Counted from the first letter of the stretch, positions 11,563 through 40,687 are shown. The stretch is DNA of 64,000 bases from Candidatus Omnitrophota bacterium (GCA_018825985.1 JAHKAP010000071.1:7556-71555); one strand, 5' to 3'. A program made the numbers and translations. Notes: generated by a model from the letters alone, not told the origin.

Positions 11563-11623
11563 TTAGGGACAGCGACTATTTTTCTTCATTATATCGATAG
11601 AAAAATAGTCGCTGTCCCTAATT
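11563..11623. repeat. REP element pair (inverted, hairpin-forming): TTAGGGACAGCGACTATTTTT...AAAAATAGTCGCTGTCCCTAA
   Basis: Perfect 21-bp inverted repeat with a 19-bp spacer. Read directly from the sequence. Confidence 0.9.
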
Positions 11624-12738
11624 AAAATCTTTATATACAAGCCTGTGATTAACTCTAGTTGCCTCTGGACAGTATAAAACTGTTCAACCTTTTTTATTCC
11701 TTCGCTGATGATACTGTCTCTTAAGTCCGCATCGCTTAGAATTTTTTTAACCGCTTCTTTTATTGCCTCCGGGTTTTTGGATTGAACTAAAATCCCGGAT
11801 ACGCCGTCCTCGATTATCTCTCTTAACCCCCCGATATCTGAGGCTACGACAGGCACGCCAATGGCCATCCCTTCAATAGCTATACGGCCAAAACCTTCAG
11901 TCTTGAGGCCTTTTTTGCTTTTTATCTCTATTGATGGTATTACCAGGATATCTAATGCCGCGATAACATTAAATATATTTTCCTTAAAACCCGTAAAGTA
12001 AAAATATTCCCGCATATTTAGATCACTGACCCGCTTTTTTAAATAAGTGAGGTAATCCTCTTCTGCCTGATTGCCTATGAATATATCTCCAATTATAAAA
12101 AAAACAGCGCCAGGGATCTCTTTCTTTAATAAATAGGCTGATTCTATAAAATATTCATACCCTTTCCAGGGGTCTATTCTGCCCACACTGCCGATTAGCA
12201 ATACATCTTTATTAAGAGAATATTCCTGCCTTAATCCAGCAGGGACGATGGGTCCCGGCGCCTCCACGGCATTCGGTATGATAATAAATTTATCTTTATA
12301 TCCAACAAATCTCTTTGTAAATTCTTCAACCACCGCTTTTGAAACCGCAATAACTTTCCGGGAAAGCCCAACAAATAAACAATCCCTCCAGGTAAAAGGA
12401 AATATTACCCTGAGATGCCCGATAAAAGGAACGCCGCTTAAATAAGCAGCTATCCCAGAGCGCATATCCAGGGAATTTACATGCAATAAATCTATCCTGT
12501 ATTTTTTTATATAACGGATAATCCTTATTATGACCATGAGATCCTTAAGAAAACAATGACTGTTAAAAATACTCACATCTATATTAAGTTCCTGTATTCT
12601 TTTTATAAGCGGACCATCGGTATAACTTATTACGCAGGGTGAAAACTGGCTCCGGTCCAAATTCTTTAAAATAGATAGAAGGCTTACCTCTCCTCCGCCG
12701 ATCTGTCCGAATAATGAAATATATAATATATTCCTCAT
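11563..12738 (-). CDS. Glycosyltransferase family 4
   Basis: EGFGRIAIEGMAIGVPVVASDIGGLREIIEDGVSGILV. The last codons and the stop lie inside a REP element. Confidence 0.8.
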   Translation of the reverse strand: MRNILYISLFGQIGGGEVSLLSILKNLDRSQFSPCVISYTDGPLIKRIQELNIDVSIFNSHCFLKDLMVIIRIIRYIKKYRIDLLHVNSLDMRSGIAAYLSGVPFIGHLRVIFPFTWRDCLFVGLSRKVIAVSKAVVEEFTKRFVGYKDKFIIIPNAVEAPGPIVPAGLRQEYSLNKDVLLIGSVGRIDPWKGYEYFIESAYLLKKEIPGAVFFIIGDIFIGNQAEEDYLTYLKKRVSDLNMREYFYFTGFKENIFNVIAALDILVIPSIEIKSKKGLKTEGFGRIAIEGMAIGVPVVASDIGGLREIIEDGVSGILVQSKNPEAIKEAVKKILSDADLRDSIISEGIKKVEQFYTVQRQLELITGLYIKILIRDSDYFSIDIMKKNSRCP

Positions 12739-12740
12739 AA

Positions 12741-13427
12741 TTACTCTTTAGCAAAACGTAAAATGAATAATACCCACAACGCCGCTACCCCATCCCTCCA
12801 AGAGATCTTCTTGCCATCTTCCTTAGTCCGGGGAAAATAAGAAATAGGCACTTCTTTAATATTGACCCCCCGCTTTAGGAGTTTAGCAGTAACTTCAGGG
12901 CAAAACTCAAACCCCCGGCATTTAAGCTGTAAAGATTTTAACAAGCTTGCCTCAATAACCTTGTAACAGGTCGGCTCATCGGTAATCCTTGAACCATAAA
13001 GAAAATTAGTCCACCAGCTCACTAATCGTCCTCCCCAGTAAAAATGCTTATAGGAATAACTATTGGACCGTTTAAGTATCCGCGAACCATAAACAACTTT
13101 TGATTCCCCGGATAGTATCGGCTGTATAAGCGCAGGGTAATCCTGAGGGCTGTATTCTAAATCCGCGTCTTGGATCAATATAATATCACCCGTTGTATCC
13201 TGAATCCCCCTTCTTATAGCCGCGCCCTTGCCCATGTTTTTTGCCAGGTTAAGGCAGATTACCTCAAAGCCGGAATTCTTGACCTTATCCAGCGTAGCAT
13301 CCGTTGAACCGTCATTAACCACTATAACCTCAAAATCAAAACCCAACCTTAAGTCAAATATCTGTTTTAAAACCTCACCTATTGTCCTTTCTTCATTATA
13401 TGCCGGGATAATAATGCTAAGTTTCAC
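12741..13427 (-). CDS. GT2 polyprenyl-phosphate sugar synthase (DPM1/ArnC-like)
   Basis: MKLSIIIPAYNEERTIGEVL...VIVVNDGSTDAT...NMGKGAAIRRGI...LIQDADLEYSP is the DPM1/ArnC-like motif set. Confidence 0.75.
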   Translation of the reverse strand: MKLSIIIPAYNEERTIGEVLKQIFDLRLGFDFEVIVVNDGSTDATLDKVKNSGFEVICLNLAKNMGKGAAIRRGIQDTTGDIILIQDADLEYSPQDYPALIQPILSGESKVVYGSRILKRSNSYSYKHFYWGGRLVSWWTNFLYGSRITDEPTCYKVIEASLLKSLQLKCRGFEFCPEVTAKLLKRGVNIKEVPISYFPRTKEDGKKISWRDGVAALWVLFILRFAKE

Positions 13428-13429
13428 TT

Positions 13430-14926
13430 TTAACCTTTCACTCTATAAATATAAGTCTTGGGTTCGATATCAGACTCATAGACCATCTCAAATTTATCTT
13501 TATATGCACTGACTAAAGGAAGTAAATAATCCCTGGATGAATCCCGGTATATCCTGCCGGCGTCAATTATAACATAATCAACTTTATTCCCCTGAATATA
13601 TTGATACTGTATTTTTGTATCTTTAGTCCTGATAAATGTCCTCACCCTCCGCCTATCAGCATAAACAAAAAGCCAGGCCGGCCTGCGGGATAAAATAATA
13701 CTTTTTTCGGGAGTATTTTTTTTGACCCAATCCGCAGCCTGGAGAAAAGACATCTCAACCGGAGTGAAAAATGGCTTTCTTTTGACTATCAACCATCGGA
13801 TATCCCCTGCGATATTAAGCAAAAGCATAAAAAACAACACCACATAAACCATCTTTTTCTTAGGCATTACTCTCTTTATCCCCAGGATAAGATAATATGT
13901 TATAAAAAATAGGATTGGCATGACATACCTTCCGCCATGATGGGTCCAGGAAAGGCAAAATACAAAAAAATAGATCACGCTATATACGTCCATTAAACCG
14001 AGGCCTTCTTTTCGCACTTTAACTATAAACCCAACCGCTATTAACAAAGCCAGGAGGCATCCTATCGCGAATTTAATGATAAATATCTTATCGTACGGAT
14101 CAATAAACGACAAAAAAGGATACGAATATAGGTCAGGCAACTCTTTGCCTATGGTAGCAGCCAGATTATAAAACCAGCGGTGAACAAAACCAAATAAATT
14201 TCCTGTTCTTAAGGCGAATTCTGAAACATAAGGCAGACGTCTTAAGAATACATTGGAAACCACCCAAAACACCGCAAAAACCAGAACAATAATAAAACAA
14301 ATTACTGACTTCTTGAATTCTTTTCTTAATAAAAAGAATACCGGAATAGATATTATCAAGGCCAGGCCCACCAGCCTGATATAATATGAAATAAATACCG
14401 CCAGTGTTCCAGCCAGCAGATATACAAATTTTTTCGATGAATTTATATCGGCATAGCGGCTGATAAGATATATTGCAATGGTGCTGAATAATATATAGGG
14501 TATCTCAGTCCGAAACTCGGCGGAATAATATACGATCTGTGGACTCAGGGCGATCAGGGGTATTACGAAAACCGTAAATTCATCTTTAAATAAGGCTTTA
14601 GGTATATAAAAAATAAAAAAAACAAAAATAAGCGATAGAATAAATGTCAGGAGCCTTAAAACATAATAATTCTTGGGAAAAAAATGCACCAAAGGCGCTA
14701 ACAAGGCTGGAAAACCATGCGGATAATTATTGATCATTGATTTAGTATGCTGATCGCTGTAACTATCGGCTTTGCCGGGAAGCATGGAATCCGCCATCAT
14801 AACATATATAGCGTCATCCTCATTCATGCCCAAAATGTTATTTAAGCCTGCGGAATAGAATATTCCCGCCAATATCAAAATCAATAAGCTTAAAGAAATT
14901 TTATGCCTATCTATCCTATTCGGCAT
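13430..14926 (-). CDS. GT-C superfamily membrane glycosyltransferase (ArnT/PMT GT39/GT83-like)
   Basis: About 12 TM helices. The first extracytoplasmic loop carries MNEDDAIYV (a DE/DD motif typical of GT-C). It is adjacent to the DPM1-like GT2. Confidence 0.5.
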   Translation of the reverse strand: MPNRIDRHKISLSLLILILAGIFYSAGLNNILGMNEDDAIYVMMADSMLPGKADSYSDQHTKSMINNYPHGFPALLAPLVHFFPKNYYVLRLLTFILSLIFVFFIFYIPKALFKDEFTVFVIPLIALSPQIVYYSAEFRTEIPYILFSTIAIYLISRYADINSSKKFVYLLAGTLAVFISYYIRLVGLALIISIPVFFLLRKEFKKSVICFIIVLVFAVFWVVSNVFLRRLPYVSEFALRTGNLFGFVHRWFYNLAATIGKELPDLYSYPFLSFIDPYDKIFIIKFAIGCLLALLIAVGFIVKVRKEGLGLMDVYSVIYFFVFCLSWTHHGGRYVMPILFFITYYLILGIKRVMPKKKMVYVVLFFMLLLNIAGDIRWLIVKRKPFFTPVEMSFLQAADWVKKNTPEKSIILSRRPAWLFVYADRRRVRTFIRTKDTKIQYQYIQGNKVDYVIIDAGRIYRDSSRDYLLPLVSAYKDKFEMVYESDIEPKTYIYRVKG

Positions 14927-16106
14927 CCAGGATACCCTTAATACTCTCGCTTAATTTATCGGTGCTTAACGTTTCTTCCACCCTCTTGCGTGAATTTTCA
15001 CCCAGGCGTTTCCTGAATTCATCGTCAGAAAGAAGTTTTATTATCCCCGAAGATATTGCCTCAACATCCAATGGGTCTACCAGAATACCGGTAACCCCAT
15101 CCAAGACAGCGTCGGATATGCCGCCGCTCTTTCCGGCAATCACTGCTTTTGAGCAGGCAGCTGCCTCTAAAAATACGATCCCAAAACCCTCGACCTCCCC
15201 GCGTTCAGGGATCTCTCTACTAACTAAAACAAATATGTCGCAGGAATAATAATATCCTGGCAGTTCTTCATCTGCGATATTTCCCTCAAATACCACTTTA
15301 TCCTTAAGGCCTAAATCAGCAACTATTTGCCGCAGGCTTTGTTCGGCCGGGCCATCGCCGACTATATGATACATTGCCTCCGGGATCGCTTTAATTACAT
15401 TGGGCATTGCCCGGATCACTGATTCGTGATTCTTACTCTCTACCAGCCTGCCGACAGTTAAAATCACTTTTTTATTTTCTGATACACTATTTATCCGGCC
15501 GAAAAAAAACTCAAAACGACTCAGGTCAACTACCGGATTTAATACCATTGAATTTAACCCTTTTATTTCCCTTCCTAACAGATCCCGGGTATAACGGCTA
15601 ATGGCAAGGACTAAAGATGAATTTCGTAAAACAAGTTTCATTAGCCACATTGCCTTTTTATCTTTTAATGGCGCGTAAACATCCAGGCCATGAGCAAAAA
15701 CAAAATATGGTATGCTAAATATTTTACTTAATACCAGGGCTGCCGGGCCTATCAGAGACCAGGTATTGACAAAAACAGCCCTGACCGGATGAGATAAACA
15801 ATAAATAAAACCATAGATAAAGAAAATAAGCAGGCTGCGGAAATAATGGTCGAAGCACCTGCCCGCCCTTACCCCCTTCAGGCGTATGACCCGCAGGCCT
15901 GTTTTATCTTCATACTTTTCTGACACGCTTACTCCGGAAGTTATAACGGTTACCTCTTCCCCGGCGCCTTTAATTGCCCGGGCAATATCAAGGCTGTGCC
16001 TGGCCATACCTCCGCTCATCGGCGGAAAATCTATCGTAAGAAAAATAATTTGGCCTATTTTTTTCGGCATACCAGTAACTTCATTAAAGAGTTCTCTAGC
16101 GGACAA
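14916..16106 (-). CDS. Glycosyltransferase family 4
   Basis: EGFGIVFLEAAACSKAVIAGKSGGISDAVLDGVTGILV. Confidence 0.8.
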   Translation of the reverse strand: MSARELFNEVTGMPKKIGQIIFLTIDFPPMSGGMARHSLDIARAIKGAGEEVTVITSGVSVSEKYEDKTGLRVIRLKGVRAGRCFDHYFRSLLIFFIYGFIYCLSHPVRAVFVNTWSLIGPAALVLSKIFSIPYFVFAHGLDVYAPLKDKKAMWLMKLVLRNSSLVLAISRYTRDLLGREIKGLNSMVLNPVVDLSRFEFFFGRINSVSENKKVILTVGRLVESKNHESVIRAMPNVIKAIPEAMYHIVGDGPAEQSLRQIVADLGLKDKVVFEGNIADEELPGYYYSCDIFVLVSREIPERGEVEGFGIVFLEAAACSKAVIAGKSGGISDAVLDGVTGILVDPLDVEAISSGIIKLLSDDEFRKRLGENSRKRVEETLSTDKLSESIKGILDAE

Positions 16107-16807
16107 TAAAAGCTATCAACCCAATAGCTGATTATTACACCCAATTCAGTCGCCGCAGCTGAAACCTTTTGCAACATTTCATTTTTAAAATATGCGAATA
16201 ACGTTCTCCCCATACAATTATAAATTGGAACAATTTCGATTATATCAATCGACTCTTCCTTAAATATACGCCTGTATTCATCTAATCTGCGATAGCGCAC
16301 ATGAGCCGCAGAGCCTGCAACAGGATTTAATGAATCAGTGACCAGTATCCAGGCGCCGGACTTTGCGGATAAGCCGATATTTTTAAGCGCCGAATTAAAT
16401 CCCTGATCATCTACAATATGATAAAGCACATCAAAGATATTGATTATATCAAATTTATCCATCCCTGGATACGGCTCAAGGCTTATATCAACCTGATGAA
16501 ACTCCTGCCCGGGAAATCTTTGCCGCAAAAGCTTAACACTGATATCGGTAATGTCTATTCCGGATACTGACTTAGCTCCTTTTTTTAAGTAATATTCAAT
16601 AAAAAAACCCGTGCCGCAGCCAATGTCTAAGACCTTGGCCCCTTTTACCGCTACGTCATGCCTGGCCAGGCCAAAGCTTAACTTTTTAGCTTTTAGTCTG
16701 TACATATAATAATTATGCACCCGGCTAAAGCCGGTATGCCCTGACCCTAAAAGCGAAAAATCTTTCTTAAACCTCTCCTGCCAAAAATCCTTTGCTTGAT
16801 AAACCAT
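16055..16807 (-). CDS. Class I SAM-dependent methyltransferase
   Basis: Motif I is VLDIGCGTGFF. Confidence 0.7.
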   Translation of the reverse strand: MVYQAKDFWQERFKKDFSLLGSGHTGFSRVHNYYMYRLKAKKLSFGLARHDVAVKGAKVLDIGCGTGFFIEYYLKKGAKSVSGIDITDISVKLLRQRFPGQEFHQVDISLEPYPGMDKFDIINIFDVLYHIVDDQGFNSALKNIGLSAKSGAWILVTDSLNPVAGSAAHVRYRRLDEYRRIFKEESIDIIEIVPIYNCMGRTLFAYFKNEMLQKVSAAATELGVIISYWVDSFYCPLENSLMKLLVCRKK

Positions 16808-16864
16808 ATTTAGGCTTTCGCTGGACCTGAAAAATAAAATGTTTTGATTCCAATGATTACCATA

Positions 16865-16970
16865 AGATTACAAAGATTAAATCGCCGGAATCTTATTTTC
16901 CCGCTACTTAACATAGTCAGCGGGATCCCGCCTACTATTAGATTTGCTTGCGGGAAAAATCTCTGTAATC
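16865..16970. repeat. Degenerate GATTACA(A/G)AGATT copies in inverted orientation flanking a nested hairpin
   Basis: aagattacaaagatt at 16865-16879 and aatctctgtaatc at 16958-16970. Between them lies the hairpin ttttcccgc..cccgct-N12-agcggg..gcgggaaaa. Confidence 0.5.
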
Positions 16971-17008
16971 CTAATACTTATTTTGTACTTGTCTTTATAA
17001 GAACTTTC

Positions 17009-17914
17009 TTAGCTCTTAAATGCCAAAAGCGCCAGGTCTGAATTGAATTGATTAGTATAACCAGGCTTAATTGGCTTGATACTGAACAAATCCCTGGCTT
17101 GCGAAAGCCTATCCCGCAAATAAAGCCTGACATCTTCAGCGCTGCCCTGATCATCTATTCTTTTTGCCGCGAGTCCCGTTTTCCATCCTTTGATAATATT
17201 TCGTATCGGCCAAGGCAGGATATCTCCGACAGCAGATACAAAACCCCTGGCATAATACTTAAAGTCACCCGACCATTCGCCATTATGTATAACGTAATGG
17301 CTTTTAAAACCCGCCTTTTCCGACATAATATTCAATTCCCGAGCTGAAAAAGGAACCTCAACGTCGATCTCCCAGGTTTTAGTCAGCATACGGAAAAGCC
17401 TCACAATTTGATACCAGGGACAAGCTTTATTAGGCACGCTGATATGGGCAAAACCTCCGGTTTTAAGCAGGTCTTTATGGTATATAAGGCATTGTATCCT
17501 TAAATTGCCGCTAAAATGCTCCATAAGCCCGGATGAGACCACCAGATCAAAATTTTCCCTTAGTTTATCCTCAGGGACCTGAAGACAATCAGCGTTTATT
17601 AATTCCGGCTGGCAGCCATACATCTGATATATAGCTTTTGCCAACCCTAGAGCCTTTTGGTTAAAATCTATCAAAGTAACAGATGAACCCATAAGCGCGA
17701 AGGAAAGCGCTGTTGTCCCTGTGCCACAGCCTACTTCAGCAATCCTTAATTTATCCAATGAGATCCCTTTTTCTATAATAATCCTTATTGCCTCCATCCA
17801 ACTCCTCTGGGATGCCATATTTTTAATCCGTATATTCATCATGTCAAACGACATATTTAATTTAGGATCCCAAATTGATTTTTTAGTTTGACTATTCATG
17901 GGCCAAAAACTCAA
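17009..17914 (-). CDS. Class I SAM-dependent methyltransferase
   Basis: Motif I is IAEVGCGTGTTALSFA. Confidence 0.7.
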   Translation of the reverse strand: MSFWPMNSQTKKSIWDPKLNMSFDMMNIRIKNMASQRSWMEAIRIIIEKGISLDKLRIAEVGCGTGTTALSFALMGSSVTLIDFNQKALGLAKAIYQMYGCQPELINADCLQVPEDKLRENFDLVVSSGLMEHFSGNLRIQCLIYHKDLLKTGGFAHISVPNKACPWYQIVRLFRMLTKTWEIDVEVPFSARELNIMSEKAGFKSHYVIHNGEWSGDFKYYARGFVSAVGDILPWPIRNIIKGWKTGLAAKRIDDQGSAEDVRLYLRDRLSQARDLFSIKPIKPGYTNQFNSDLALLAFKS

Positions 17915-18729
17915 TCTCTCCTGGCGATTATGCCGCCATATTCCTTGATGCTGTTGATTGGTTCACCCTTTAAATTATCAATCCGGTAACCTGAGCTTTT
18001 TAGAATTGATATGATTGCCAAGTCTGTTGTGCCATAATCTTTCCAGGCATAGGGGTGCATCTCAATAAAGATTGCCCTGGGAAAACCCTGGCCCCTACGC
18101 AATATATTTTGCGCGCCCATCAGGACCTTTTCCTCATAACCCTCAACATCGATTTTAATTATATCTAGTTTCTCTCCGGAAAAAAAATCATCCAGGGTCG
18201 TGCACGCAACTTCGGTCGCCTTTTTTGTTTTAAGCTTTTCATTAGCAATAACCGCGGAGGTAGATGCAGACAGATTATTAAATTTTATCCTTCCGGGGCG
18301 ATCGCCCACGGCTAAACCCGCTATTTCCAAGGTAGAGCTGAATTTATATCTTTTAACAATCTTTTTTAAGAATTTCAGGTTAGCCGGATCAGGCTCAAAA
18401 GCCACAACCTTCCCATTAGCCCCCGCCCGTTTGGCTAAGGCAAAGGTATAGAATCCGAAAAAAGCGCCTACATCGGCTATGGTGTCCCCCGGCCGCACCT
18501 GCCGCATCATCCCATTCCAAAACTCAGTCTCATACTTTTCTGTAAAATGCCTTAAATAATGGGGTATATAAATAATATCGGTTTTGCTTATTTTACGCTG
18601 CAATAGATCGCCATAGATCAACTTAAGTGAGTATTCGTATGCCGGAGTAATCAGCCTCCAGAAAAAATTAAGTTTTCTTAATACCGGTAAATTCCTGATC
18701 ATCCTGGCAGATTTTTCGATAATATACAT
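17911..18729 (-). CDS. FkbM-family methyltransferase
   Basis: IADVGAFFGFYTFALAK...VVAFEPDPANLKFL...IDVEGYEEKVL is the FkbM domain pattern. Confidence 0.75.
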   Translation of the reverse strand: MYIIEKSARMIRNLPVLRKLNFFWRLITPAYEYSLKLIYGDLLQRKISKTDIIYIPHYLRHFTEKYETEFWNGMMRQVRPGDTIADVGAFFGFYTFALAKRAGANGKVVAFEPDPANLKFLKKIVKRYKFSSTLEIAGLAVGDRPGRIKFNNLSASTSAVIANEKLKTKKATEVACTTLDDFFSGEKLDIIKIDVEGYEEKVLMGAQNILRRGQGFPRAIFIEMHPYAWKDYGTTDLAIISILKSSGYRIDNLKGEPINSIKEYGGIIARRD

Positions 18730-19652: not shown

Positions 19653-19681
19653 TTACAGGCCTTTAAAATATAATCCTATCC

Positions 19682-20830: not shown

Positions 20831-20831
20831 C

Positions 20832-22356: not shown

Positions 22357-22375
22357 CTGCCCAATTATTGGTTAT

Positions 22376-24857: not shown

Positions 24858-24858
24858 T

Positions 24859-26004: not shown

Positions 26005-26008
26005 TTTT

Positions 26009-27660: not shown

Positions 27661-27662
27661 AA

Positions 27663-30615: not shown

Positions 30616-30703
30616 ATTTTAAATAAAATAGGGCTTCACAAAAATCGTTTCGCCCTTGATTACGGAGATTAATAATAGATTCCAGAGATTAATGCTTGAT
30701 GAC

Positions 30704-30736
30704 AAATCACTGTAATCTTTTTAAAATCGCTGTAAT
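30704..30736. repeat. GATTACAG(C/T)GATT direct-repeat element (2 copies, opposite orientation to the 8438 copy)
   Basis: aatcactgtaatc-tttttaaa-aatcgctgtaatc. It is followed by the hairpin cagccctcgag..gaagggctg (30740-30769). Confidence 0.8.
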
Positions 30737-30768
30737 CAACAGCCCTCGAGTGAATTTCGTGAAGGGCT

Positions 30769-30805
30769 GTAAATAAAACAAAAGGGGGTCGTTTCATACC
30801 CCCTT
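30769..30805 (-). terminator. Rho-independent terminator downstream of wzc
   Basis: The stem aaggggg/ccccctt (30782-30788/30799-30805) is followed on the minus strand by TTGTTTTATTT. It lies 27 nt after the wzc stop codon. Confidence 0.5.
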
Positions 30806-30831
30806 AGTTCAAATCAATAATATTCCTATTT

Positions 30832-32775: not shown

Positions 32776-32783
32776 TCACCTTT

Positions 32784-32845
32784 ATTAGGGACAGCGACTA
32801 TTTTTAAATTTAATATTATTTAAGAAAAATAGTCGCTGTCCCTAT
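32784..32845. repeat. REP element pair (inverted)
   Basis: ATTAGGGACAGCGACTATTTTT ... AAAAATAGTCGCTGTCCCTATT. It lies between wzc and the nucleotidyltransferase gene. Confidence 0.9.
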
Positions 32846-32867
32846 TATCACCTAACATACCATAAAA

Positions 32868-33944
32868 TCAACGAGTTAGCAATCTTTTTCTCAGTAGAAA
32901 TACCGCTTTTAGCGTTAATTTATAAACATCCTGGATCTTATTTTGGAGAAGTATATAGATAAGGCAGGGAAGGCCATAAAACTTTAATTTTTTTTGAATC
33001 AAGAATAGAATTGCCTTTCTTTGATAATCCGCATTGATCGTCTTCAGCCTAATTTGTTTAGGATCACGCGGTTTTAATGACCGGTAAGTATAATATAAAC
33101 AGTATGATAAAGTTCCTTCCAGGCCGAGTAATTTTGCCTCTTCTCTGGCGTCATTCCAGTCAATTCTATCTTGATAATTCCGGACGAATTCAAAGATATC
33201 TGTAAGGAGTATGAGCCTCTCAAAAGAGTGGCTGAAACTATGCAGGCACAGATGAAATAAATGATGCTGGCAGGATAGCGCCAGGGCGTTCGCTCCTGCT
33301 ATGTTAACGCTGGAAGCTTCGGACCAGATCTTTTCCGGGTTTACCCTACCGGCAATAAAACTCCTCATCCAGGTCGAAGTCAGAATATCCCAATGCAAAT
33401 CAATAGATATAGAAATACTTCTGAGGCGGTCGACTTTCGCGAACAAAACAGAATAAGATAATGGGTCATTAAAAGAAGTATTGATGCTATCAGCAGCGCT
33501 ATATCCTGAATCCAGCAGAACTTTGCCTATCCTGAAAAAGTCATCCTTTTTGATAAGAATATCCATATCCGACATCTGCCTTAAGGCGATATTTTTATAA
33601 ACAGCCTCGGCCAGAAAGATACCTTTCAAAAGGATAACCTTAATTTGACTTTGCTCAAAAATACTCAGCAGCCTTGCCAATTCCTCGTATATTAATGTAT
33701 TCCTGGCGCAGTTATTATAGTAAATTGATTCCAACTCCTTAAAAATCGCTGGCGGCAGATAGCCTTGAAAACCAAACCGGTTTAAATGATAATAAAGCAG
33801 ACAGGCAACGCCATGTTGTTTGGAGACCTTAAGCAGATAATCCCAATCAAGTCCTGACTTTAGTAATTCTTCGGCTTTAGTCAGCCTTGATTTATCGGGA
33901 TCGATAACAGAAAACAAAATAACTATCCGCTCTTCAATTCTCAT
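32868..33944 (-). CDS. Uncharacterised nucleotidyltransferase family protein (PF14907-like)
   Basis: ALRQMSDMDILIKKDDF carries a DxD nucleotidyltransferase motif. The overall length and pattern match the nucleotidyltransferases found beside HprK-like kinases in RiPP clusters. Confidence 0.55.
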   Translation of the reverse strand: MRIEERIVILFSVIDPDKSRLTKAEELLKSGLDWDYLLKVSKQHGVACLLYYHLNRFGFQGYLPPAIFKELESIYYNNCARNTLIYEELARLLSIFEQSQIKVILLKGIFLAEAVYKNIALRQMSDMDILIKKDDFFRIGKVLLDSGYSAADSINTSFNDPLSYSVLFAKVDRLRSISISIDLHWDILTSTWMRSFIAGRVNPEKIWSEASSVNIAGANALALSCQHHLFHLCLHSFSHSFERLILLTDIFEFVRNYQDRIDWNDAREEAKLLGLEGTLSYCLYYTYRSLKPRDPKQIRLKTINADYQRKAILFLIQKKLKFYGLPCLIYILLQNKIQDVYKLTLKAVFLLRKRLLTR

Positions 33945-33954
33945 ATTTTCTCAG

Positions 33955-34028
33955 GGACACCCTTGCAACTAAAGCTAAGGGTGTCCCCAATAGGGGACAC
34001 CCTGCCGATTAGCTGCGAGGGTGTCCCT
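33955..34028. repeat. Tandem GGGACACCC/GGGTGTCCC hairpins
   Basis: Hairpin 1 has stems at 33956-33964 and 33980-33988. Hairpin 2 has stems at 33994-34003 and 34020-34028. Together they fill the gap between the ABC exporter stop codon and the nucleotidyltransferase start codon. Confidence 0.8.
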
Positions 34029-34032
34029 GGGT

Positions 34033-35766
34033 TTACTGGGTGCCGAATAAATCGCGGAATCCGGGATCTTGTTTAATCAGGATTTGAGGTTTATCTATTA
34101 TAATAGCTCCGGGCCCGGATAAATAATAAACCGCATCCATACCCATAACAGTGGATAATCTATGGGAGACTACGATCAAAGTCATATCGGGCTGGGCCTG
34201 TTTAAGGTTGGATATTATCCTCTCCTCACTTAATGAATCCATTGCCGCAAAAGCTTCATCCAGGATCATGATCTTCGGTTTTTTTATCGCTGCCCGGGCC
34301 ATCGCGATCTTTTGCTTCTGGCCCTCGGAAATCCTGCAGGCATTCTCGCCGATAACTGTGTCAAAACCCGCGGTTAAATTGCTTGCTAAATCATCCACGC
34401 CACAGAGCCTGGCAGCCTCGGTCATTTCTTCTGTGCCCGCCTGATCCAAGCCATATTTGATATTATTGGCTATACTATCATTCCAAAGAAATGGTTCTTG
34501 CAAAGCAAAACCAACCTGGCTTTTTAACGTGCCAGGGTCTATTTCTCTGATATTATGGCCATCAATAAATATATCCCCTTCCCAGAGATCATACAACCCC
34601 AGGATCAAACTTAGAATTGTGGTTTTACCGCAGCCTGATCTACCGGCAATGGCTATCCGGCTGGCACCCGGCAGAGTAAAACTTAAATTTTTTAATATAC
34701 TCCTACCCGGACAATAGCCGAAACTGACATTTCTAAATATAATCTCTCCTTTTTTGAATATTGGCTTTGAGGTATTACTCCGGGCTGATGTATCCTGGTC
34801 GTCATTCAAAATTTTATCTATTCTTTCACAGGATATTAACCCGGTTAAAGCAGACTGGAAAAAACGGGCTAATTCATTTTCCAGGCCCACTAACTGGCCA
34901 AAATATACCATTATAGCGGTTAAACTGCCCAAAGACATCCTCCCCTTTATAACCTGATAACCGCCGTAAAACGTGATTATCCCGACCGCAGCCTTGCTTA
35001 ACATTTCGACCAAAAAACCAGATACAGTTTCCAATTTAAGGCTTTTAAGGCTGATCCCTGCGTAACTGATCAGCTTCTCCAGGTATGATCTTATGCTGGC
35101 TGTTTCTCTGCCGAATACCTTAATCAGTTGTATATGTGAGAAGGTTTCTTCTAAATACCGGTATATATTCTCAGAACTCCTGATTAGATCTTCAATGATT
35201 AAACGCATCTTCCTACCGAAATAACGGCTGGGTAAGAATAAAAAAGGAGAAATTAAAAACGAAATAAGAGTCATCTTCCAATTAAGATGAATAACAATTA
35301 CCAAGATGAGCAATAACCTGAATAAAACAAAAAAGATGGCCGGCACCCTGATAGTGATAAATTCCGCGATATTATCTATATCATAATTAAGTTTATAGAT
35401 ATGCTCAGCGCTTGTCTTATCTTTAAACCAGCCTAGGGAAAAACTCTGCAGGCGGATAAATACCGATTTATTCAGCTCATAATTGGCTTTAATTCTTATA
35501 TTGCGGTAGAAATAATCCTTGATTCTATTTGCTAAATCCGCGGCTAAATAGATCACACACCCTAACAGCGTAAGTATAGCGAAAGACTTAAAATCTTTTT
35601 TAACCAGGCCGACGTCAATAATAAACTTAGCCAGATAGGGGTTGATCAGGCTTAAAATTATACCGATATTGCTTAAAACAACCAGCCAAAACCAGAGCTT
35701 CTTATAGGGCGAGATATATTTAAAAAATTTTAATAATAATCTTAGGTTGGTGAATTTAAATTTCAT
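34033..35766 (-). CDS. ABC exporter, fused permease and ATPase, with no peptidase domain
   Basis: Six TM helices at the N-terminus. Walker A GRSGCGKTT, signature SEGQKQK, Walker B IMILDEA. Confidence 0.85.
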   Translation of the reverse strand: MKFKFTNLRLLLKFFKYISPYKKLWFWLVVLSNIGIILSLINPYLAKFIIDVGLVKKDFKSFAILTLLGCVIYLAADLANRIKDYFYRNIRIKANYELNKSVFIRLQSFSLGWFKDKTSAEHIYKLNYDIDNIAEFITIRVPAIFFVLFRLLLILVIVIHLNWKMTLISFLISPFLFLPSRYFGRKMRLIIEDLIRSSENIYRYLEETFSHIQLIKVFGRETASIRSYLEKLISYAGISLKSLKLETVSGFLVEMLSKAAVGIITFYGGYQVIKGRMSLGSLTAIMVYFGQLVGLENELARFFQSALTGLISCERIDKILNDDQDTSARSNTSKPIFKKGEIIFRNVSFGYCPGRSILKNLSFTLPGASRIAIAGRSGCGKTTILSLILGLYDLWEGDIFIDGHNIREIDPGTLKSQVGFALQEPFLWNDSIANNIKYGLDQAGTEEMTEAARLCGVDDLASNLTAGFDTVIGENACRISEGQKQKIAMARAAIKKPKIMILDEAFAAMDSLSEERIISNLKQAQPDMTLIVVSHRLSTVMGMDAVYYLSGPGAIIIDKPQILIKQDPGFRDLFGTQ

Positions 35767-36751
35767 GTTTTTTAAATAACCGTGTTAATCGACAGTAATA
35801 ATCCAGCGGTTTTTCCTTGCCGCCGGTTTCTAAATAGGCCTTTCCGGGGCACCAGCCGCATAAGGGCCTGAGGTTACAATCCCGGCATTTAGAATCAGTT
35901 TTAAACTCTTCCTTGGCCATATAAGATGATAACCTATTCAAACCTGACTTAATATCCGCCCTTAAAAGGTTTACTTTAGGCTTTCTTAATAAATCACACA
36001 AAAACATATTTCCGTAGGGATCAACGTAAATCCCGTCTGCGCTTGAGATCACGCAGGGATAGAAGCGGGATTCAATGTTTCGGGATGAAGAACCTTCGCA
36101 GCCATCATTACTTTGTTTTTTAAAATGGTATAACCCCAATACCTGTTCAGGGGTAATCCTTAGTTTGCAAGGCGCGATATCCCCATTTAAATTTGGATAT
36201 AAAATATGATTGGGGGTAAAATTTGAGCCTATCCCCTTGAGGTATTTTTTTATTTGCGGCAGGTGCTTAAAATTATCCTTAGTCACCTGGGTTTTGATTT
36301 TAAATTGCAGACATGAATCTAAAATTAACCCTATTCCGCGCATTGTTTTCGCAAACGAACCCTGTATTCGGGAGATTTTCTCGTATAGATCCTTGTCAAC
36401 CGCATTTAAGGTTATCTCAATTACAAATGGGGGATTTTTTTTTAGATATTTGATTATCCTACGATTCAAAGAATAACCATTGGTAAAAATAGTGGTGATA
36501 AAACCTTTTTTCCTGGCATAAGCGTAGATCTCCAGAAAATCATCCCTGACAATGGGGTCTCCGCCAGATAAACAGAGCCAGATAACCCCAGCGCAGGCAA
36601 GCCTGTCTAAAACAAATTTTACTTCTTTAGTAGTTAATTCCTTTTTAGAATAGGCTTTTTTGTTAAAACAATCGGTATAACAATGCCGGCAATGAAGGAC
36701 GCATCTAAAGGTTAATTCGAACCGGCAGGCGCTCGGCCGGTTAAGGCTCAT
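35756..36751 (-). CDS. Radical SAM / SPASM-domain peptide-modifying enzyme (paralogue 1)
   Basis: CVLHCRHC is the CxxxCxxC cluster. The C-terminal CRDCNLRPLCGWCPGKAYLETG is a SPASM motif. About 35% identical to 37735-38793. Confidence 0.8.
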   Translation of the reverse strand: MSLNRPSACRFELTFRCVLHCRHCYTDCFNKKAYSKKELTTKEVKFVLDRLACAGVIWLCLSGGDPIVRDDFLEIYAYARKKGFITTIFTNGYSLNRRIIKYLKKNPPFVIEITLNAVDKDLYEKISRIQGSFAKTMRGIGLILDSCLQFKIKTQVTKDNFKHLPQIKKYLKGIGSNFTPNHILYPNLNGDIAPCKLRITPEQVLGLYHFKKQSNDGCEGSSSRNIESRFYPCVISSADGIYVDPYGNMFLCDLLRKPKVNLLRADIKSGLNRLSSYMAKEEFKTDSKCRDCNLRPLCGWCPGKAYLETGGKEKPLDYYCRLTRLFKKHEI

Positions 36752-36798
36752 ATTTTTTAGATGGGTTTTTAAACTAAAATCTTTATACCGGGTTTCTT

Positions 36799-37731
36799 TC
36801 AGATCGACCTCACGAATGGAATAATGCTTTTACTCTTGATTAAACCTAAACTCAAACACGGCATATTCTTGACTAAATCCAAGCCTAAAAAAATAATATT
36901 TTCGGTTAATTTTCTATCCCAGAAATTCGGAAAAATATTCGGATAGAGGAGTTTGAATGCCTCAGCGGATGATATGGCTTTAACCGTATTATTCGTATAC
37001 TGGTAAATAAAAAAAAGCTTGTCTAACTCGGCCCGGCCAATATAAGAATTCTGAAAACCCCGGAATTCGCCGCACCAGGGAGAGCCGTAAATAAAAAACC
37101 TCCCCTTTACCTTGCGGACAATGACGTGGTCATCATTTAATACTTCGGCCCGGCTGTGCTCATGCCAAGTCCTGGCTAAAGTCGTCTTTCCCGCGCCTGA
37201 TCTGCCCATAAATACCAGGCCCTTGCCATTGCTATCCCTTATCCCTGCTCCGTGCAAGAAAATCCCTGATTTCCTTTGCGCGAAATAATTTATAAAAAGC
37301 ACCTGCAGAAAATCATAGGTCAGGTCAGCCACATTCCAAACCAGGCCTTTATCTTTTTTAGGGAGCACATAAACCCGGGCCCGGTCAAAAGCCTTATTAA
37401 AATAGGTTACCTGCTCTTTATCCTTTGCCACAGTCTTATAGATATAAAACCCATTTTTTTTAAGGACCTGCCAATTCTCAGTCCGATCCTGGGGATGGAT
37501 GACTTTAAATACATCAATCGCACCTGAAAGCTTTGGCAGGAAATTCTCAACCTCTACATCTATTTTTATATCGGATTTAACATTTTCCCTACTGACAAAA
37601 TTACTAAAGAATTGTTTAAACCAAGGGTTCTCTTCGCCCTTATGAAAAGCCTCATGGTAAAAAGCGCTTTTTATCTCAACTGTTACGCCGGCGATTTTAA
37701 GCCGGACCTTATTTGATTTTTTATCGAACAT
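36799..37731 (-). CDS. HprK-related P-loop kinase (HPr kinase C-terminal domain-like)
   Basis: LHGAGIRDSNGKGLVFMGRSGAGKTTLA...VLNDDHVIV aligns to the HPr kinase C-terminal domain ([25 protein letters not shown]...LVADD). Confidence 0.65.
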   Translation of the reverse strand: MFDKKSNKVRLKIAGVTVEIKSAFYHEAFHKGEENPWFKQFFSNFVSRENVKSDIKIDVEVENFLPKLSGAIDVFKVIHPQDRTENWQVLKKNGFYIYKTVAKDKEQVTYFNKAFDRARVYVLPKKDKGLVWNVADLTYDFLQVLFINYFAQRKSGIFLHGAGIRDSNGKGLVFMGRSGAGKTTLARTWHEHSRAEVLNDDHVIVRKVKGRFFIYGSPWCGEFRGFQNSYIGRAELDKLFFIYQYTNNTVKAISSAEAFKLLYPNIFPNFWDRKLTENIIFLGLDLVKNMPCLSLGLIKSKSIIPFVRSI

Positions 37732-37734
37732 CTT

Positions 37735-38793
37735 TTAATTTAAAACACCTGATTTTGCCAATTCGCAAAAGAACCTGACTGGTTTTTCCCGCTCTCCGGC
37801 CTCTAAATAAGCCCGGGCCGGGCACCAACGGCAAACCGGCCTTAACGCGCAATCCTGGCATTTGGAATCAGAATTAAACTCCTGGCTTAAGACCCTGGGA
37901 TTGATAGTTGAAAAACTTTTTTTTAAAGAAGCATCTCTTAAATTTACGCTGTATTCCTGGAAAAATACACAATACCTAAGCCTGCCGAATGGATCAATAA
38001 ATACTTTATTCTTACCGGCGTCGCATTGAAAGAGGTATTTCCTCTGCCTCGGTAATTCCGGGGCATCTTTAAACCTGCCATCTTGGCATTCGCTTGAGAT
38101 ATCCTGGTCCTGTTTAAAAACCGCAAAAATTTCTTTAGGGGAGAGCCGGTATTTACAAGGCGTTTTATCACCGTTAAGCCGGGGATATATCAATGGGTCA
38201 CATTTAAAATAATGCTTATTACCCGGTTTACCTAATACCTTTTCTGCCCATTGCTTAATCCCGGCTATCTCGTTTTTATTGCGCTTAAGCAAGTTAGATT
38301 TAATGATCACCGGAAGTTTTCTTTGGATCAAAAAGGCGATATTCATCATGGCCAAAGAAAAAGAACCATTTACCCGGGTTATCTTTTCATAGTTTTCTTT
38401 GTTAATACTGTTTACGGTTATTTCTATCGCGTACGGCGGGGATTTAGTTAGATAATCGATGGTCTTTTTATTAAAACCCAAGGCATTGGTAAATAAAGTG
38501 ACCAGAAATCCTTTTTCCCGGGCATAAACGTAAATATCTAAAAAATCCTCTCTTATTAAAGGCTCTCCTCCGGTTAAAGTCAACCAGATACAGCCTTCCC
38601 TGCGCAGGCTGCTGATCAGCCTCTTGATCTGCGTGGTATTGAGCTCATTTCCCTTATTTTCCGACCCCTTGCAAAAACAATGCGGGCATTTCAGATTACA
38701 CCGGTAGGTCAACTCAAGATGGGCGCTAAGAGGAAAGGATATTTTTTTAGTATTGAGTTTTTGATAAAAAAAATCGAGGTTGCGGCTCTTCAT
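37735..38793 (-). CDS. Radical SAM / SPASM-domain peptide-modifying enzyme (paralogue 2)
   Basis: CNLKCPHC is the cluster. The C-terminal CQDCALRPVCRWCPARAYLEAG is a SPASM motif. Confidence 0.8.
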   Translation of the reverse strand: MKSRNLDFFYQKLNTKKISFPLSAHLELTYRCNLKCPHCFCKGSENKGNELNTTQIKRLISSLRREGCIWLTLTGGEPLIREDFLDIYVYAREKGFLVTLFTNALGFNKKTIDYLTKSPPYAIEITVNSINKENYEKITRVNGSFSLAMMNIAFLIQRKLPVIIKSNLLKRNKNEIAGIKQWAEKVLGKPGNKHYFKCDPLIYPRLNGDKTPCKYRLSPKEIFAVFKQDQDISSECQDGRFKDAPELPRQRKYLFQCDAGKNKVFIDPFGRLRYCVFFQEYSVNLRDASLKKSFSTINPRVLSQEFNSDSKCQDCALRPVCRWCPARAYLEAGEREKPVRFFCELAKSGVLN

Positions 38794-38806
38794 TCTCAGA
38801 AATAGA

Positions 38807-38866
38807 ATTAGGGACAGCGACTATTTTTTTAACTGTAAAATTAAAAAATAGTCGCTGTCCCTAATT
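38807..38866. repeat. REP element pair (inverted)
   Basis: ATTAGGGACAGCGACTATTTTTTT ... AAAAAATAGTCGCTGTCCCTAATT. It lies between the radical-SAM gene and the precursor ORF. Confidence 0.9.
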
Positions 38867-38869
38867 AAT

Positions 38870-39073
38870 TTAACTATATTGCCCGCCGCTAGACCATTTT
38901 TGGCTGGATAAAACGACCTTGGTAGCAGGGGTCGTCCCCTCGCAAATATTTTGCTTTGGGGCACTATTACCGGCCATATATCCGGTGTTATAACAGGGGC
39001 AGACCAGGATAGCCTGTTCAGGGTTTAGTTTTATCCGGGTTATCGCAGGATTAAATTTCTTTTTTGCGCTCAT
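38870..39073 (-). CDS. Candidate RiPP precursor peptide (67 aa)
   Basis: The small ORF MSAKKKFNPAITRIKLNPEQAILVCPCYNTGYMAGNSAPKQNICEGTTPATKVVLSSQKWSSGGQYS is preceded by a perfect Shine-Dalgarno sequence (AAAGGAGG, 7 nt upstream of the ATG). It sits between the PqqD-like and radical-SAM genes and is flanked by REP hairpins. Confidence 0.45.
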   Translation of the reverse strand: MSAKKKFNPAITRIKLNPEQAILVCPCYNTGYMAGNSAPKQNICEGTTPATKVVLSSQKWSSGGQYS

Positions 39074-39087
39074 CTTCCCCTCCTTTA

Positions 39088-39111
39088 ATTAGGGACAGCG
39101 ACTATTTTTTT
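39088..39111. repeat. REP element (single copy)
   Basis: ATTAGGGACAGCGACTATTTTTTT. It lies between the precursor ORF and the PqqD-like gene. Confidence 0.85.
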
Positions 39112-39394
39112 AATAACTGATCGCTTTAGCCTCTTTTAAATCACTAAGGAATCCTGATAGAGTTTTATCAATCTGTTCGGCTGGGCCGTCAAATTCATCC
39201 AATATTTGTTTTTTCACCTGGGCAATGGTATTTTTGCCGTTTAGCATCTTCCAGATCAAAGAACCTGTTTCATTTAAAGAATAAATACAATTGATATCGT
39301 CAGAGTGTTTATATATAGGCACCAGGATGGTTTCACCTGCGATATCCCTGGCGACCATATTAGGATTCTTCTTAATTACCGTATTTGGCTTCAT
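39110..39394 (-). CDS. PqqD-family protein (RiPP recognition element)
   Basis: 94 aa. VARDIAGETILVP...YSLNETGSLIWKMLNG...IAQVKKQILDEF matches the PqqD/RRE fold pattern. Confidence 0.65.
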   Translation of the reverse strand: MKPNTVIKKNPNMVARDIAGETILVPIYKHSDDINCIYSLNETGSLIWKMLNGKNTIAQVKKQILDEFDGPAEQIDKTLSGFLSDLKEAKAISY

Positions 39395-39407
39395 TTTAAT
39401 TAGGGAC

Positions 39408-39442
39408 AGCGGCTATTTTCTTAATTAAATAGTCGCTGTCCC
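39408..39442. repeat. REP element pair (inverted, short spacer, one copy with G-to-A variant)
   Basis: ATTAGGGACAGCGGCTATTTTC..AAATAGTCGCTGTCCCC. It overlaps the stop codon of the S24 peptidase gene. Confidence 0.85.
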
Positions 39443-39813
39443 CTCTCTATTAACCAAGCGATTAATGGCGCGATTATAACTATAGCCCTGTAAAGAAACT
39501 GCTGATTTTCGGCGCCACAGTTGATTAATTTATCATTTTTTATTATACCACAAACCCGGCCTAAAAGCATTTCTTCAGTTATTTTTTCCGGCGCTGATAA
39601 TGAAAGGTCTCCCCGGGTATAAAGTAAGTAATTTTCCCCGGGTTTATCTTTTCTTATCAAGCGATGGCAAACAATCTGATTGCCGGAATTATATAAGAGC
39701 AAATCCCCTGTTTTTAAATCCTTAAGGGGAGTTTTTCTGACAATTACCTTCTGGCCTGACTTTAAGAAAGGCCACATACTTTGCCCGCTAACCTCAAAAA
39801 ACAATAAATCCAT
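39421..39813 (-). CDS. S24/S26-family (LexA / signal peptidase I-like) serine peptidase domain protein
   Basis: EVSGQSMWPFL is the Ser nucleophile box. IVCHRLIRK is the Lys general-base region. 130 aa, standalone. Confidence 0.55.
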   Translation of the reverse strand: MDLLFFEVSGQSMWPFLKSGQKVIVRKTPLKDLKTGDLLLYNSGNQIVCHRLIRKDKPGENYLLYTRGDLSLSAPEKITEEMLLGRVCGIIKNDKLINCGAENQQFLYRAIVIIAPLIAWLIERGQRLFN

Positions 39814-39837
39814 ATTAATAGGGACAGCGACTATTTT

Positions 39838-40515
39838 CTATTCTTCCTTCGGCCTGCCTACTGGCAATTGAAACAACCTTTTGTGAAGATTTTTCTCTAG
39901 CGTTTCTATAAACCCGCTTGTTCCCAAAGGACGACCGGTAAGTGTGTATTTTCTAATATTTTGTAAGATATTACCTTCTTCCGAATAATCAATATAATTT
40001 CGCCAATAGTTATAGGACATACCTGTTATTTCAAAAAAATTTTCAAACTCAAAAATCTTATCTTTTTGTTGGTTGGTATGAGCCAATGCACTCGACCATT
40101 CCCATTCCCATGGCTTTTTTACCAATCCCGCACGCACTGGGTTTCGTTCAACATAACGAACAGCTAGTATCAAATGAGCTTCATCTAAAGCGCATGAATA
40201 AAAACGGCCTTGCCATAGATGCCCGCGTTGCTGCAGTTTTTTGTTAAAATATTGCGCATATCGCATATGGGCAATATTAAATGTCTTGGCCAATGAATCA
40301 TTTTCTGCAGGAATACCCACAAAATGAACATGATTTTGCATTAAACAATAGGCTAAAATACAAAGGCCATATTGTTTGCTATATTCTTTTATCCATTCAA
40401 GGTATTGTTTCCTATCATGAACATCAGAGAAAACATCCTGTTGATAATTCCCTCTCTGGGTAATGTGATGTGGCAACCCTCTCGCTACAACTCTTGCAAT
40501 TCTAGTCATATTCAA
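39838..40515 (-). CDS. REP-associated tyrosine transposase (RAYT, IS200/IS605-like HuH Y1 transposase)
   Basis: The HuH motif is MQNHVHFV and the catalytic Tyr lies in LAVRYVERNPVRAGLV. It is flanked on both sides by REP copies in inverted orientation (39818-39839 and 40592-40612). Confidence 0.8.
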   Translation of the reverse strand: MNMTRIARVVARGLPHHITQRGNYQQDVFSDVHDRKQYLEWIKEYSKQYGLCILAYCLMQNHVHFVGIPAENDSLAKTFNIAHMRYAQYFNKKLQQRGHLWQGRFYSCALDEAHLILAVRYVERNPVRAGLVKKPWEWEWSSALAHTNQQKDKIFEFENFFEITGMSYNYWRNYIDYSEEGNILQNIRKYTLTGRPLGTSGFIETLEKNLHKRLFQLPVGRPKEE

Positions 40516-40591
40516 TCCCTCCTCTCTACTATTAATAGACGTAGAGAAAAAGAATTTCTAACTAAAATATTTCACATATTTCAAAGAACAA

Positions 40592-40612
40592 TAAAATAGT
40601 CGCTGTCCCTAT
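40592..40612. repeat. REP element (single copy) upstream of RAYT
   Basis: AAAATAGTCGCTGTCCCTATT. Confidence 0.85.
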
Positions 40613-40687
40613 TAAATATTCAAAAAACAATAAATTATTCATTTTCTATTTAAGAGATAGTCCATCTCATAGTTAATGATTGACGGA

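Follow-up and report, generated by a model that had tools for sequence, protein, structure and literature searches.

RAYT-like genes (RAYT stands for REP-associated tyrosine transposase, and REP for repetitive extragenic palindromic sequence) that are flanked by terminal inverted repeats (TIRs) sharing GGGGWSAS, and not by REPs, were described by Di Nocera (2013; PMC3733652), and were named TIRYTs, with the corresponding elements called TIRtrons. The distance between TIR and gene is constant, and certain TIRs make up moderately abundant families whose copies are grouped as dimers or clusters (PMC3733652). TIRYTs were equated by Quentin (2018; PMC6006769) with TnpA-Y1 subclass 2.1, which corresponds to RAYT Group 1 (Bertels 2017; PMC5581495), reported there as the most widespread of the RAYT groups and the largest. 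Proteins of subclass 2.1 have a median length of 238 residues and are marked by NHVH, W[EQ], YIELNP or Y[IV]HLNP and, in the tail, an 'SS' motif, and the subclass was scored as being without REPs (PMC6006769); subclass 2.1, or Group 1, also has a C-terminal helix-turn-helix (HTH)-like domain (Bac_DnaA_C, HTH_23 or HTH_28). The subject of this report is a 64,000-nucleotide stretch of DNA from a Candidatus Omnitrophota bacterium (GCA_018825985.1, JAHKAP010000071.1:7556-71555; hereafter the window, with positions counted from its first letter), in which inverted copies of a short repeat stand on either side of a Y1 HuH tyrosine transposase gene. The locus is very probably a TIRtron with a TIRYT gene, accompanied by non-autonomous solo and head-out dimer copies of its repeat, on which the enzyme would act. 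The TIRtron class has already been described; a member from uncultivated lineages is what is new. The element and the copies of its repeat are located as follows.

39819-40611, minus strand: whole TIRtron, 793 bp, comprising the left TIR, a leader of ~83 nucleotides with a Shine-Dalgarno sequence (SD), the TIRYT gene and the right TIR
39838-40509, minus strand: TIRYT, or RAYT-like, Y1 HuH tyrosine transposase gene, 223 amino acids, ATG at 40509, protein beginning MTRIARV
40593-40611, minus strand: upstream (left) TIR of the TIRtron, exact 19-mer
39819-39837, plus strand: downstream (right) TIR of the TIRtron, exact 19-mer
39090-39108, plus strand: solo TIR between the PqqD gene and a 67-amino-acid open reading frame (ORF)
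38809-38827/38845-38863: perfect head-out TIR dimer, 55 bp, between the 67-amino-acid ORF and a radical SAM gene (-25.2 kcal/mol, z = -12.6)
32786-32804/32826-32844: perfect head-out TIR dimer, 59 bp, between an NTP_transf_5 gene and wzc (-22.4 kcal/mol, z = -10.9)
11564-11582/11602-11620: perfect head-out TIR dimer, 57 bp, in the last 19 codons of the glycosyltransferase ORF 11563-12738 (-25.3 kcal/mol, z = -11.5)
39401-39419 (one mismatch)/39426-39444 (three mismatches): degenerate head-out TIR dimer at the 3' end of an S24-like ORF (-14.3 kcal/mol)

Transposase and repeat compared with described elements

The only Pfam match of the transposase is Y1_Tnp (residues 16-125, E = 1.4e-14). The catalytic motifs, HuH (NHVHF) and tyrosine (RYVERNP), are invariant among ten relatives, and the protein also carries LWQGRF and WSSA, the latter containing the 'SS' tail motif. 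A preliminary description of this DNA had placed a HuH/Tyr transposase, bracketed by inverted repeat copies, at 39838-40515, and both the bracketing and, on closer alignment, the motifs were borne out. An ORF finder indeed starts the gene at the TTG at 40515 (39838-40515, minus strand); since the relatives begin MPRIAR and an SD precedes the ATG, the true start is probably the ATG at 40509. The C-terminal tail has conserved features (W169, Y172, GRP.G and GRP) and gave no HTH match among the Pfam families.

Compared by BLASTP with the TIRYT reference sequences (Additional file 5 of Di Nocera 2013, PMC3733652), the protein is 45% identical to aba_2776 over 225 residues, which is the full length (E = 4e-65), 44% identical to gsu_2396 over nearly the full length (212 residues) and 39% identical to pca_3049 over the full length, the E-values of the three matches ranging from 1e-59 to 1e-65. 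To this full-length homology and the shared catalytic HuH and tyrosine are added two further likenesses to TIRtrons: the gene is flanked by TIRs at a short fixed distance and not by self-palindromic GTAG REPs, and the TIR copies occur as singles, dimers and clusters. The core of the window TIR, AGGGACAG, fits GGGGWSAS at seven of eight positions, and that of many relatives and of plasmid copies from P. aeruginosa and R. rubrum reads GGGGACAG or GGGGTCAG, an exact fit in the relatives. The hosts, by contrast, are uncultivated Omnitrophota, Nitrospirota and other lineages outside the published surveys. With subclass 2.1 the window protein shares NHVH, WQ, Y..NP and the 'SS' tail motif, at a length of 223 residues; it differs in its Y motif YVERNP (YVE(R/N)NP in the relatives), which is two of six positions off YIELNP or Y[IV]HLNP, and in having a tail without a Pfam HTH.

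The repeat is 19-22 bp long with the core (A/G)GGGACAG, and the ten relatives share one plan, namely AAATAGGGACAGCGACTATTTT, a promoter, 220-224 codons ending ...GRPKK, and AAAATAGTCGCTGTCCCTATTT. In the window, the right TIR begins directly past the transposase stop codon and ends 5 nucleotides short of the ATG of the S24-like ORF. Of 58 TIRtrons, 32 have a promoter of the form TTGAC-N17-19-TANNNT that starts 11-19 nucleotides past the GAC core and whose -10 box stops 5-8 nucleotides short of the ATG (mode 6), so that the mRNA would be leaderless or nearly so, with the repeat touching the -35 box. The window TIRtron and its closest relative (L019) differ in having a leader of ~83 nucleotides with an SD. 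A 16-nucleotide direct repeat, ATTTATTGTTTTTTGA, surrounds the window element:

40620-40635, minus strand: upstream copy, in a decayed S24-like gene start just outside the left TIR
39794-39809, minus strand: downstream copy, within the genuine 5' end of the S24-like gene

These are its only two occurrences in the window, a number that none of 200 shuffles equals. Target-site duplication is not expected from Y1 HuH transposition, and none was found around the 60+ other TIRtrons in which it was sought, so the 16-nucleotide duplication is taken as a local event and not as a general target duplication.

The 19-mer TAGGGACAGCGACTATTTT (search form GGGACAGCGAC) has 11 matches in the window at up to three mismatches, where 0.01 are expected and none of 100 shuffles reaches 11; its shorter core was not found elsewhere in the window. 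The copies resolve into seven loci, comprising three perfect inverted pairs, one degenerate close pair and three singles. The repeat family seen in the preliminary description is therefore real, with 11 copies in place of the ten reported there (the loci itemized in that description themselves sum to 11), and the placement it noted holds for all 11: every copy is intergenic or overlaps a gene 3' end, and six of the seven loci fall within 32786-40611 (7.8 kb, against a stated 8 kb). Five of the seven lie no more than 1.8 kb from the transposase gene. The degenerate dimer at 39401-39444 covers the final codons of ORF 39421-39813. The C-terminal 19 codons and stop of the glycosyltransferase ORF 11563-12738 (…IRDSDYFSIDIMKKNSRCP and the stop, at 11563-11620) are read from the repeat dimer, so the insertion replaced the original C-terminus.

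The source genome was covered for ~84 kb (the window and ~20 kb around it), with 13 repeat copies in all. Another perfect dimer lies ~3 kb beyond the window start (L197:12352-12410), and the extra ~20 kb held no further copies on the side past the window end. With copies at 11.5 kb, at 32.8 kb and ~3 kb outside the window, and with others in many further genomes, the motif is not confined to the transposase locus. Two independent public assemblies of Candidatus Omnitrophota bins (L186 and L187) match the window at 99.98-99.995% identity, so the locus is not an assembly artefact; repeat polymorphism between these assemblies of the same population (99.98% identical) was not found. The 19-mer had no matches in a scan of viral contigs, which thus gives no hint of a phage vector. 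Another Y1_Tnp protein, different from the first and 398 amino acids long, is encoded ~3 kb beyond window position 1 (L197:12843-14039), ~430 bp downstream of the perfect dimer at L197:12352-12410; its HuH motif is DHLH and its tyrosine motif YIHLNP, and its C-terminal half has a hydrophobic stretch that possibly spans the membrane.

Single window repeats fold at -0.1 to -0.8 kcal/mol (z of +0.6 to -0.8), no better than shuffles; the perfect dimers fold strongly (-22 to -25 kcal/mol, z of -11 to -12.6). The copies read (A/T)TAGGG, none has a G before TAG, and no GT[AG]G foot was found. These properties bear on the explanation that comes nearest to the TIRtron, a canonical REP/REPIN-RAYT system with palindromic, GTAG-footed REPs, REPIN doublets and a vertically inherited, domesticated single-copy RAYT of Group 2 or 3. 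The bracketed gene and the inverted doublets do resemble a REPtron with REPINs, the sole Protein Data Bank relative of the transposase is E. coli TnpA_REP (4ER8, E = 6e-4, catalytic motifs aligned), and the best-matching NCBIfam model is REP_Tyr_transpos (NF047646). However, that match scores 70.8 bits, below the curated cut-off of 80, and the E. coli RAYT (eco_b228) is 25% identical over only 95 residues, against 45% over the full length for the TIRYT; the P. fluorescens RAYT (pfs_4255) is 24% identical over 133 residues. Together with the weak folding of single units and the missing foot, with doublet spacers that all differ, unlike those of REPIN populations, and with the listing of subclass 2.1 as lacking REPs (PMC6006769), this makes a canonical REP system improbable. 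What was proposed in the preliminary description as a REP family with its cognate RAYT accordingly stands in part: the protein belongs to the broad RAYT superfamily and its repeat is cognate (the two flanks share a variant, and variants follow clades), but the repeat is no classical REP, having neither hairpin nor GT[AG]G foot, and full-length identity makes the protein a TIRYT.

Set against other small elements, the locus shares with the E. coli REPtron (TnpA_REP, 4ER8, with REPs and bacterial interspersed mosaic elements) a Y1 HuH gene bracketed by its presumed short repeats, which are dispersed in intergenic DNA, often as inverted pairs. The REPs of E. coli, however, are palindromic singly and carry a 5' GTAG foot, and the protein has 165 residues, whereas the window units are non-palindromic TIRs and the window protein has an extra C-terminal tail of ~80 residues. 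REPINs (Bertels & Rainey 2011, PMC3116915) are likewise inverted doublets in long hairpins and the presumed non-autonomous partners of a single transposase gene; REPIN doublets form populations copied from one another, whereas the window dimers each have their own spacer. The IS200/IS605 family (IS608, ISDra2) has in common with the window element the Pfam Y1_Tnp domain and a small unit of ~0.7-0.8 kb that holds the transposase gene only. It differs in its ends (dissimilar subterminal hairpins in IS200, inverted repeats here), in its Y motif and size (Y...Q and a core-only ~150 residues, against Y...NP and 223 residues with a tail) and in abundance, IS200 being usually multicopy and near-identical, whereas a second window TIRtron was not seen in ~84 kb. 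Bacterial miniature inverted-repeat transposable elements also comprise non-coding head-out TIR pairs that match the ends of a transposase-bearing element; the window dimers depart from them in an interior of 2-21 bp, in the absence of an evident target-site duplication and in their association with a HuH/tyrosine rather than a DDE enzyme. When the motif was sought in the literature, on both strands, no paper was found to contain it.

Variation of the repeat and the transposase across genomes

An exact scan for the 19-mer, with one genome per species, returned at least 105 stretches (8-kb tiles, L001-L105). In 16 of the 105 listed stretches, from Firmicutes isolates and bins (for example L009, L013, L014 and L033), the 19-mer lies inside one conserved coding context; these were set aside as a chance occurrence in a conserved gene. 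That gene, found in Peptoniphilus, Anaerococcus, Streptococcus and Lachnospiraceae, is unrelated to the repeat family and is probably carried on a mobile element. The remaining listed stretches are intergenic. The bins with the exact 19-mer are labelled as at least nine phyla, namely Omnitrophota, Planctomycetota, Nitrospirota, 'Deltaproteobacteria', WOR-3, Firestonebacteria, Desantisbacteria, Auribacterota and NPL-UPA2; those of Planctomycetota are Kuenenia, Scalindua and Brocadiaceae, and include anammox bacteria. Several genomes give multiple tiles each, among the matches listed. Ten tiles, from Omnitrophota, Nitrospirota and a 'Deltaproteobacteria' bin, have the same architecture as the window, with a transposase 50-68% identical to that of the window. 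A hidden Markov model search for distant transposases in the 105 listed tiles returned only those already found by tblastn.

Because the genome tiles were chosen by the motif, an unbiased sample of 80 metagenome loci was drawn by means of conserved transposase peptides (41-68% identity). The gene is bracketed by an inverted repeat in most of those loci that have enough flanking DNA, and the left and right arms of one locus agree in their variant, as where TAGGGACAGACACCTATTT stands on each side. The arms retain the core G[GT]GAC, and 54 distinct arms show no change at G11, G13, A14, C15 and C21. In a neighbour-joining tree of the transposases, the variants …GACAGCGAC…, …GACAG[TC]CACC… and …GACGCTACC… cluster by clade. 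The 19-mer occurs at up to one mismatch in about 10 of the 80 loci. To judge from this joint variation, repeat and transposase form a cognate pair, and the 19-mer is slowly evolving rather than invariant.

The close pairs in the window and the genome tiles are head-out in 34 of 39 cases, with TAGGG outward and the T-run inward, which is the orientation of the repeats bracketing the gene; their total lengths cluster near 40-44 and 55-60 bp, and they resemble TIRtrons stripped of the transposase gene. More distant relatives of the transposase (~32% identity) are found on plasmids of Rhodospirillum, Skermanella, Iodobacter and Pseudomonas. On the two plasmids examined, from R. rubrum and P. aeruginosa, the TIRs are likewise of this type, GGGG(T/A)CAGA, and on the R. 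rubrum plasmid the TIR ends 36 nucleotides before the start codon.

Some variants of the repeat are clear hairpins, such as AAATAGGG-GACAGCG-CCCTATTT, as is the repeat of the R. rubrum plasmid, AAAAGGGG-TCAGA-CCCCTTTT. RNAalifold found no consensus structure among 54 distinct left arms. In a register-free permutation, the complementarity of the 5' and 3' flanks was 4.19 bp, compared with 3.39±0.19 bp when flanks were swapped between loci, and none of 5,000 permutations reached the observed value. Hairpin potential in the repeat family is real, but it is weak in the variant of the window.

Two further occurrences of the 19-mer were recorded. In the WOR-3 bin JAUWNN01 (L005, L043, L090 and L093), which has a GC-rich genome, the exact AT-rich repeat precedes a repeated module that has one of two short-ORF variants; MKLGELGDLYGLTEDEIAIVEGRTK (26 amino acids) is the product of the variant found in L005, in L093 and, as one copy, in L043. 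The repeat also occurs in this bin as tandem partial copies, and no transposase was found in the 8-kb tiles. In a Promethearchaeota bin (L002) and a Clostridia bin (L040), the exact 19-mer is followed by a nearly identical 30 nucleotides (taccttcggcggaagccgacaagg…), and this sharing between Asgard archaeal and Clostridia bins could reflect misbinning or a recently shared element.

History of the locus and the RiPP-like cassette

The window copies near the TIRtron lie in and around a SynChlorMet-like cassette for a ribosomally synthesized and post-translationally modified peptide (RiPP), located between wza and wzc (32868-39813). It comprises the S24/signal-peptidase-like ORF, PqqD, a precursor-like ORF of 64-67 amino acids, two to three radical SAM/SPASM genes, ScmC, an ABC exporter and NTP_transf_5. 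Relatives of the locus were found through Wza homologues, one with 84% Wza identity (L190) and two with 56% (L192 and L193). The order wza, S24-like ORF, PqqD and 64-67-amino-acid ORF is kept in all three; on the short contig L190 (5193-6095) the first three cassette genes directly follow wza, and L192 and L193 go on with radical SAM genes, ScmC, the ABC transporter, NTP_transf_5 and wzc (L192:10969-20128, and likewise in L193). No Y1 transposase is present in L190, L192 or L193, and the GC content is even across the cassette region of the window. The same order in relatives without the transposase, together with the even GC content, indicates that the place of the cassette between wza and wzc is ancestral and that the repeat did not deliver it. 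The suggestion in the preliminary description that REP activity had shaped or delivered this insertion is therefore not supported. The position of the cassette hints that the peptide and the exopolysaccharide (EPS) locus are functionally connected.

The window was aligned with L190, in which the S24-like gene is >90% identical in DNA. The 793-bp TIRtron is an insertion at the junction of wza and the S24-like gene and is missing from the orthologous L190 junction; the site of the solo repeat at 39090-39108 is empty in L190 (1-nucleotide spacer), and the dimer at 38809-38863 is missing from it. The window and L190 share the degenerate dimer at 39401-39444, which occupies an identical site in each. 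As the decayed dimer is common to the two sequences and the TIRtron, the solo repeat and the perfect dimer are not, the decayed copy is the older and the perfect copies are lineage-specific. The TIRtron and most of the local repeat copies thus appear to be later insertions into a pre-existing SynChlorMet-like RiPP cassette. A filled site that is empty in the window occurs in L070, which has orthologues (41-76% identity) of the window genes at 57.5-63.8 kb and a dimer between two genes that are spaced 5 nucleotides apart in the window. In the comparison with L190:5575-5593, 21 nucleotides that include the SD of PqqD are missing from the window (39394-39400), and through this loss the PqqD ATG directly follows the repeat (CCCTAATTAAAATG).

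Such gains and losses bear on the idea that the 19-mer is not mobile and serves instead as an operator or other regulatory site, or as an RNA hairpin that terminates or stabilizes EPS and RiPP transcripts. The left copy does abut the -35 box in relatives, window copies stand directly upstream of three start codons, the dimers are very stable (-22 to -25 kcal/mol) and the sequence is strongly conserved across phyla. A fixed regulatory site would nevertheless sit poorly with the non-syntenic positions of the repeat, with three sites empty in L190 and one filled in L070 where the window is empty, and with a dimer inside a coding 3' end. Moreover, a T-tract is lacking after the dimers on the transcribed strand, terminator-like matches are not above the shuffled background, the repeat variants co-vary with the transposase clade and not with the neighbouring genes, and an Rfam scan of the whole window matched no family. 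We regard this explanation as still less probable than a canonical REP system.

Least credible of all is a composite transposon bounded by TIRs, in which the 7.8-kb block from 32786 (plus-strand copy) to 40611 (minus-strand copy) would have brought the RiPP-like cassette into the EPS locus: its outermost copies are head-out as required and the cassette does lie between wza and wzc, but the same cassette occupies that position in L192 and L193 without a transposase, L190 has the first cassette genes directly after wza without the TIRtron, there is no GC discontinuity, and among 11 copies a suitable orientation arises by chance about 1 time in 4. Such an origin of the cassette was rejected on synteny.

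Proposed activity and significance

The anatomy of the TIRtron, the cognate protein and repeat, the dispersed solo and dimer copies, their clustering near the gene and their gain and loss between relatives are all observed in these sequences. By analogy with IS608 TnpA and E. coli TnpA_REP, the enzyme would recognize the repeat, probably on single-stranded DNA during replication. As in other members of the HuH Y1 family, cutting and rejoining would proceed through a 5'-phosphotyrosine intermediate on the conserved tyrosine, and copies of the repeat may thereby be spread or rearranged, preferentially close to the transposase gene. Binding of the protein at a left repeat that abuts the TTGAC -35 box would plausibly provide autoregulation. 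Secondarily, the dimers might act within the operon as hairpins of the mRNA.

Several points weigh against a TIRtron of this kind with mobile non-autonomous copies. Cleavage, strand specificity and mobilization are extrapolated from relatives, and TIRYT biochemistry was not found in the searched literature, where the term itself is rare. The single TIRs of the window variant do not fold, and a fixed-column covariation test of a short stem around the conserved GACAG loop was not above shuffles, a failure attributed to arms that differ in register and to A-rich and T-rich flanks. Arm complementarity is supported by the register-free permutation alone, a measure that kinship among the sequences can inflate. 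Each dimer has its own spacer sequence, so no single master element can have given rise to the dimers by simple copying. The left TIR of the window itself has no convincing promoter match, so the idea of a repeat-abutting promoter and autoregulation rests on the relatives, and the copy number in the source genome is known only for ~84 kb (13 copies).

A bolder proposal, which we put forward only tentatively and think rather doubtful, is that the 19-22-bp repeat is an exceptionally slowly evolving protein-DNA recognition element. On this view TIRtrons would be ancient, would have persisted mostly by vertical descent and would use a recognition code that is frozen. While the exact 19-mer has been kept, transposase identity has fallen to ~50%, and this divergence runs roughly parallel to the host phylum. 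The alternative to vertical persistence is a selfish element that has been transferred repeatedly. If the code is frozen, this could also mean a function at the level of the host, with autoregulated leaderless expression from the repeat-abutting promoter.

To the published accounts of TIRtrons, the TIRtron reading adds an exact 19-mer shared across phyla, a promoter geometry, the co-clustering of repeat variants with transposase clades, and filled and empty orthologous sites, none of which contradicts the published picture. For the RiPP-like cassette, the repeats are to be treated as later passengers and not as a sign of horizontal delivery. In the annotation of uncultivated Nitrospirota genomes and those of the Planctomycetes-Verrucomicrobia-Chlamydiae group, the motif accounts for many of the contigs that break off short, the genes with odd 3' ends and the ribosome-binding sites that are missing. 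Although TIRYT and TIRtron elements correspond to the largest RAYT group, no other has been studied so little. With a defined 22-bp site, a conserved promoter geometry and natural filled and empty sites, this locus and its relatives offer a testable model, and repeat variants that track transposase clades are what a dissection of recognition specificity needs.

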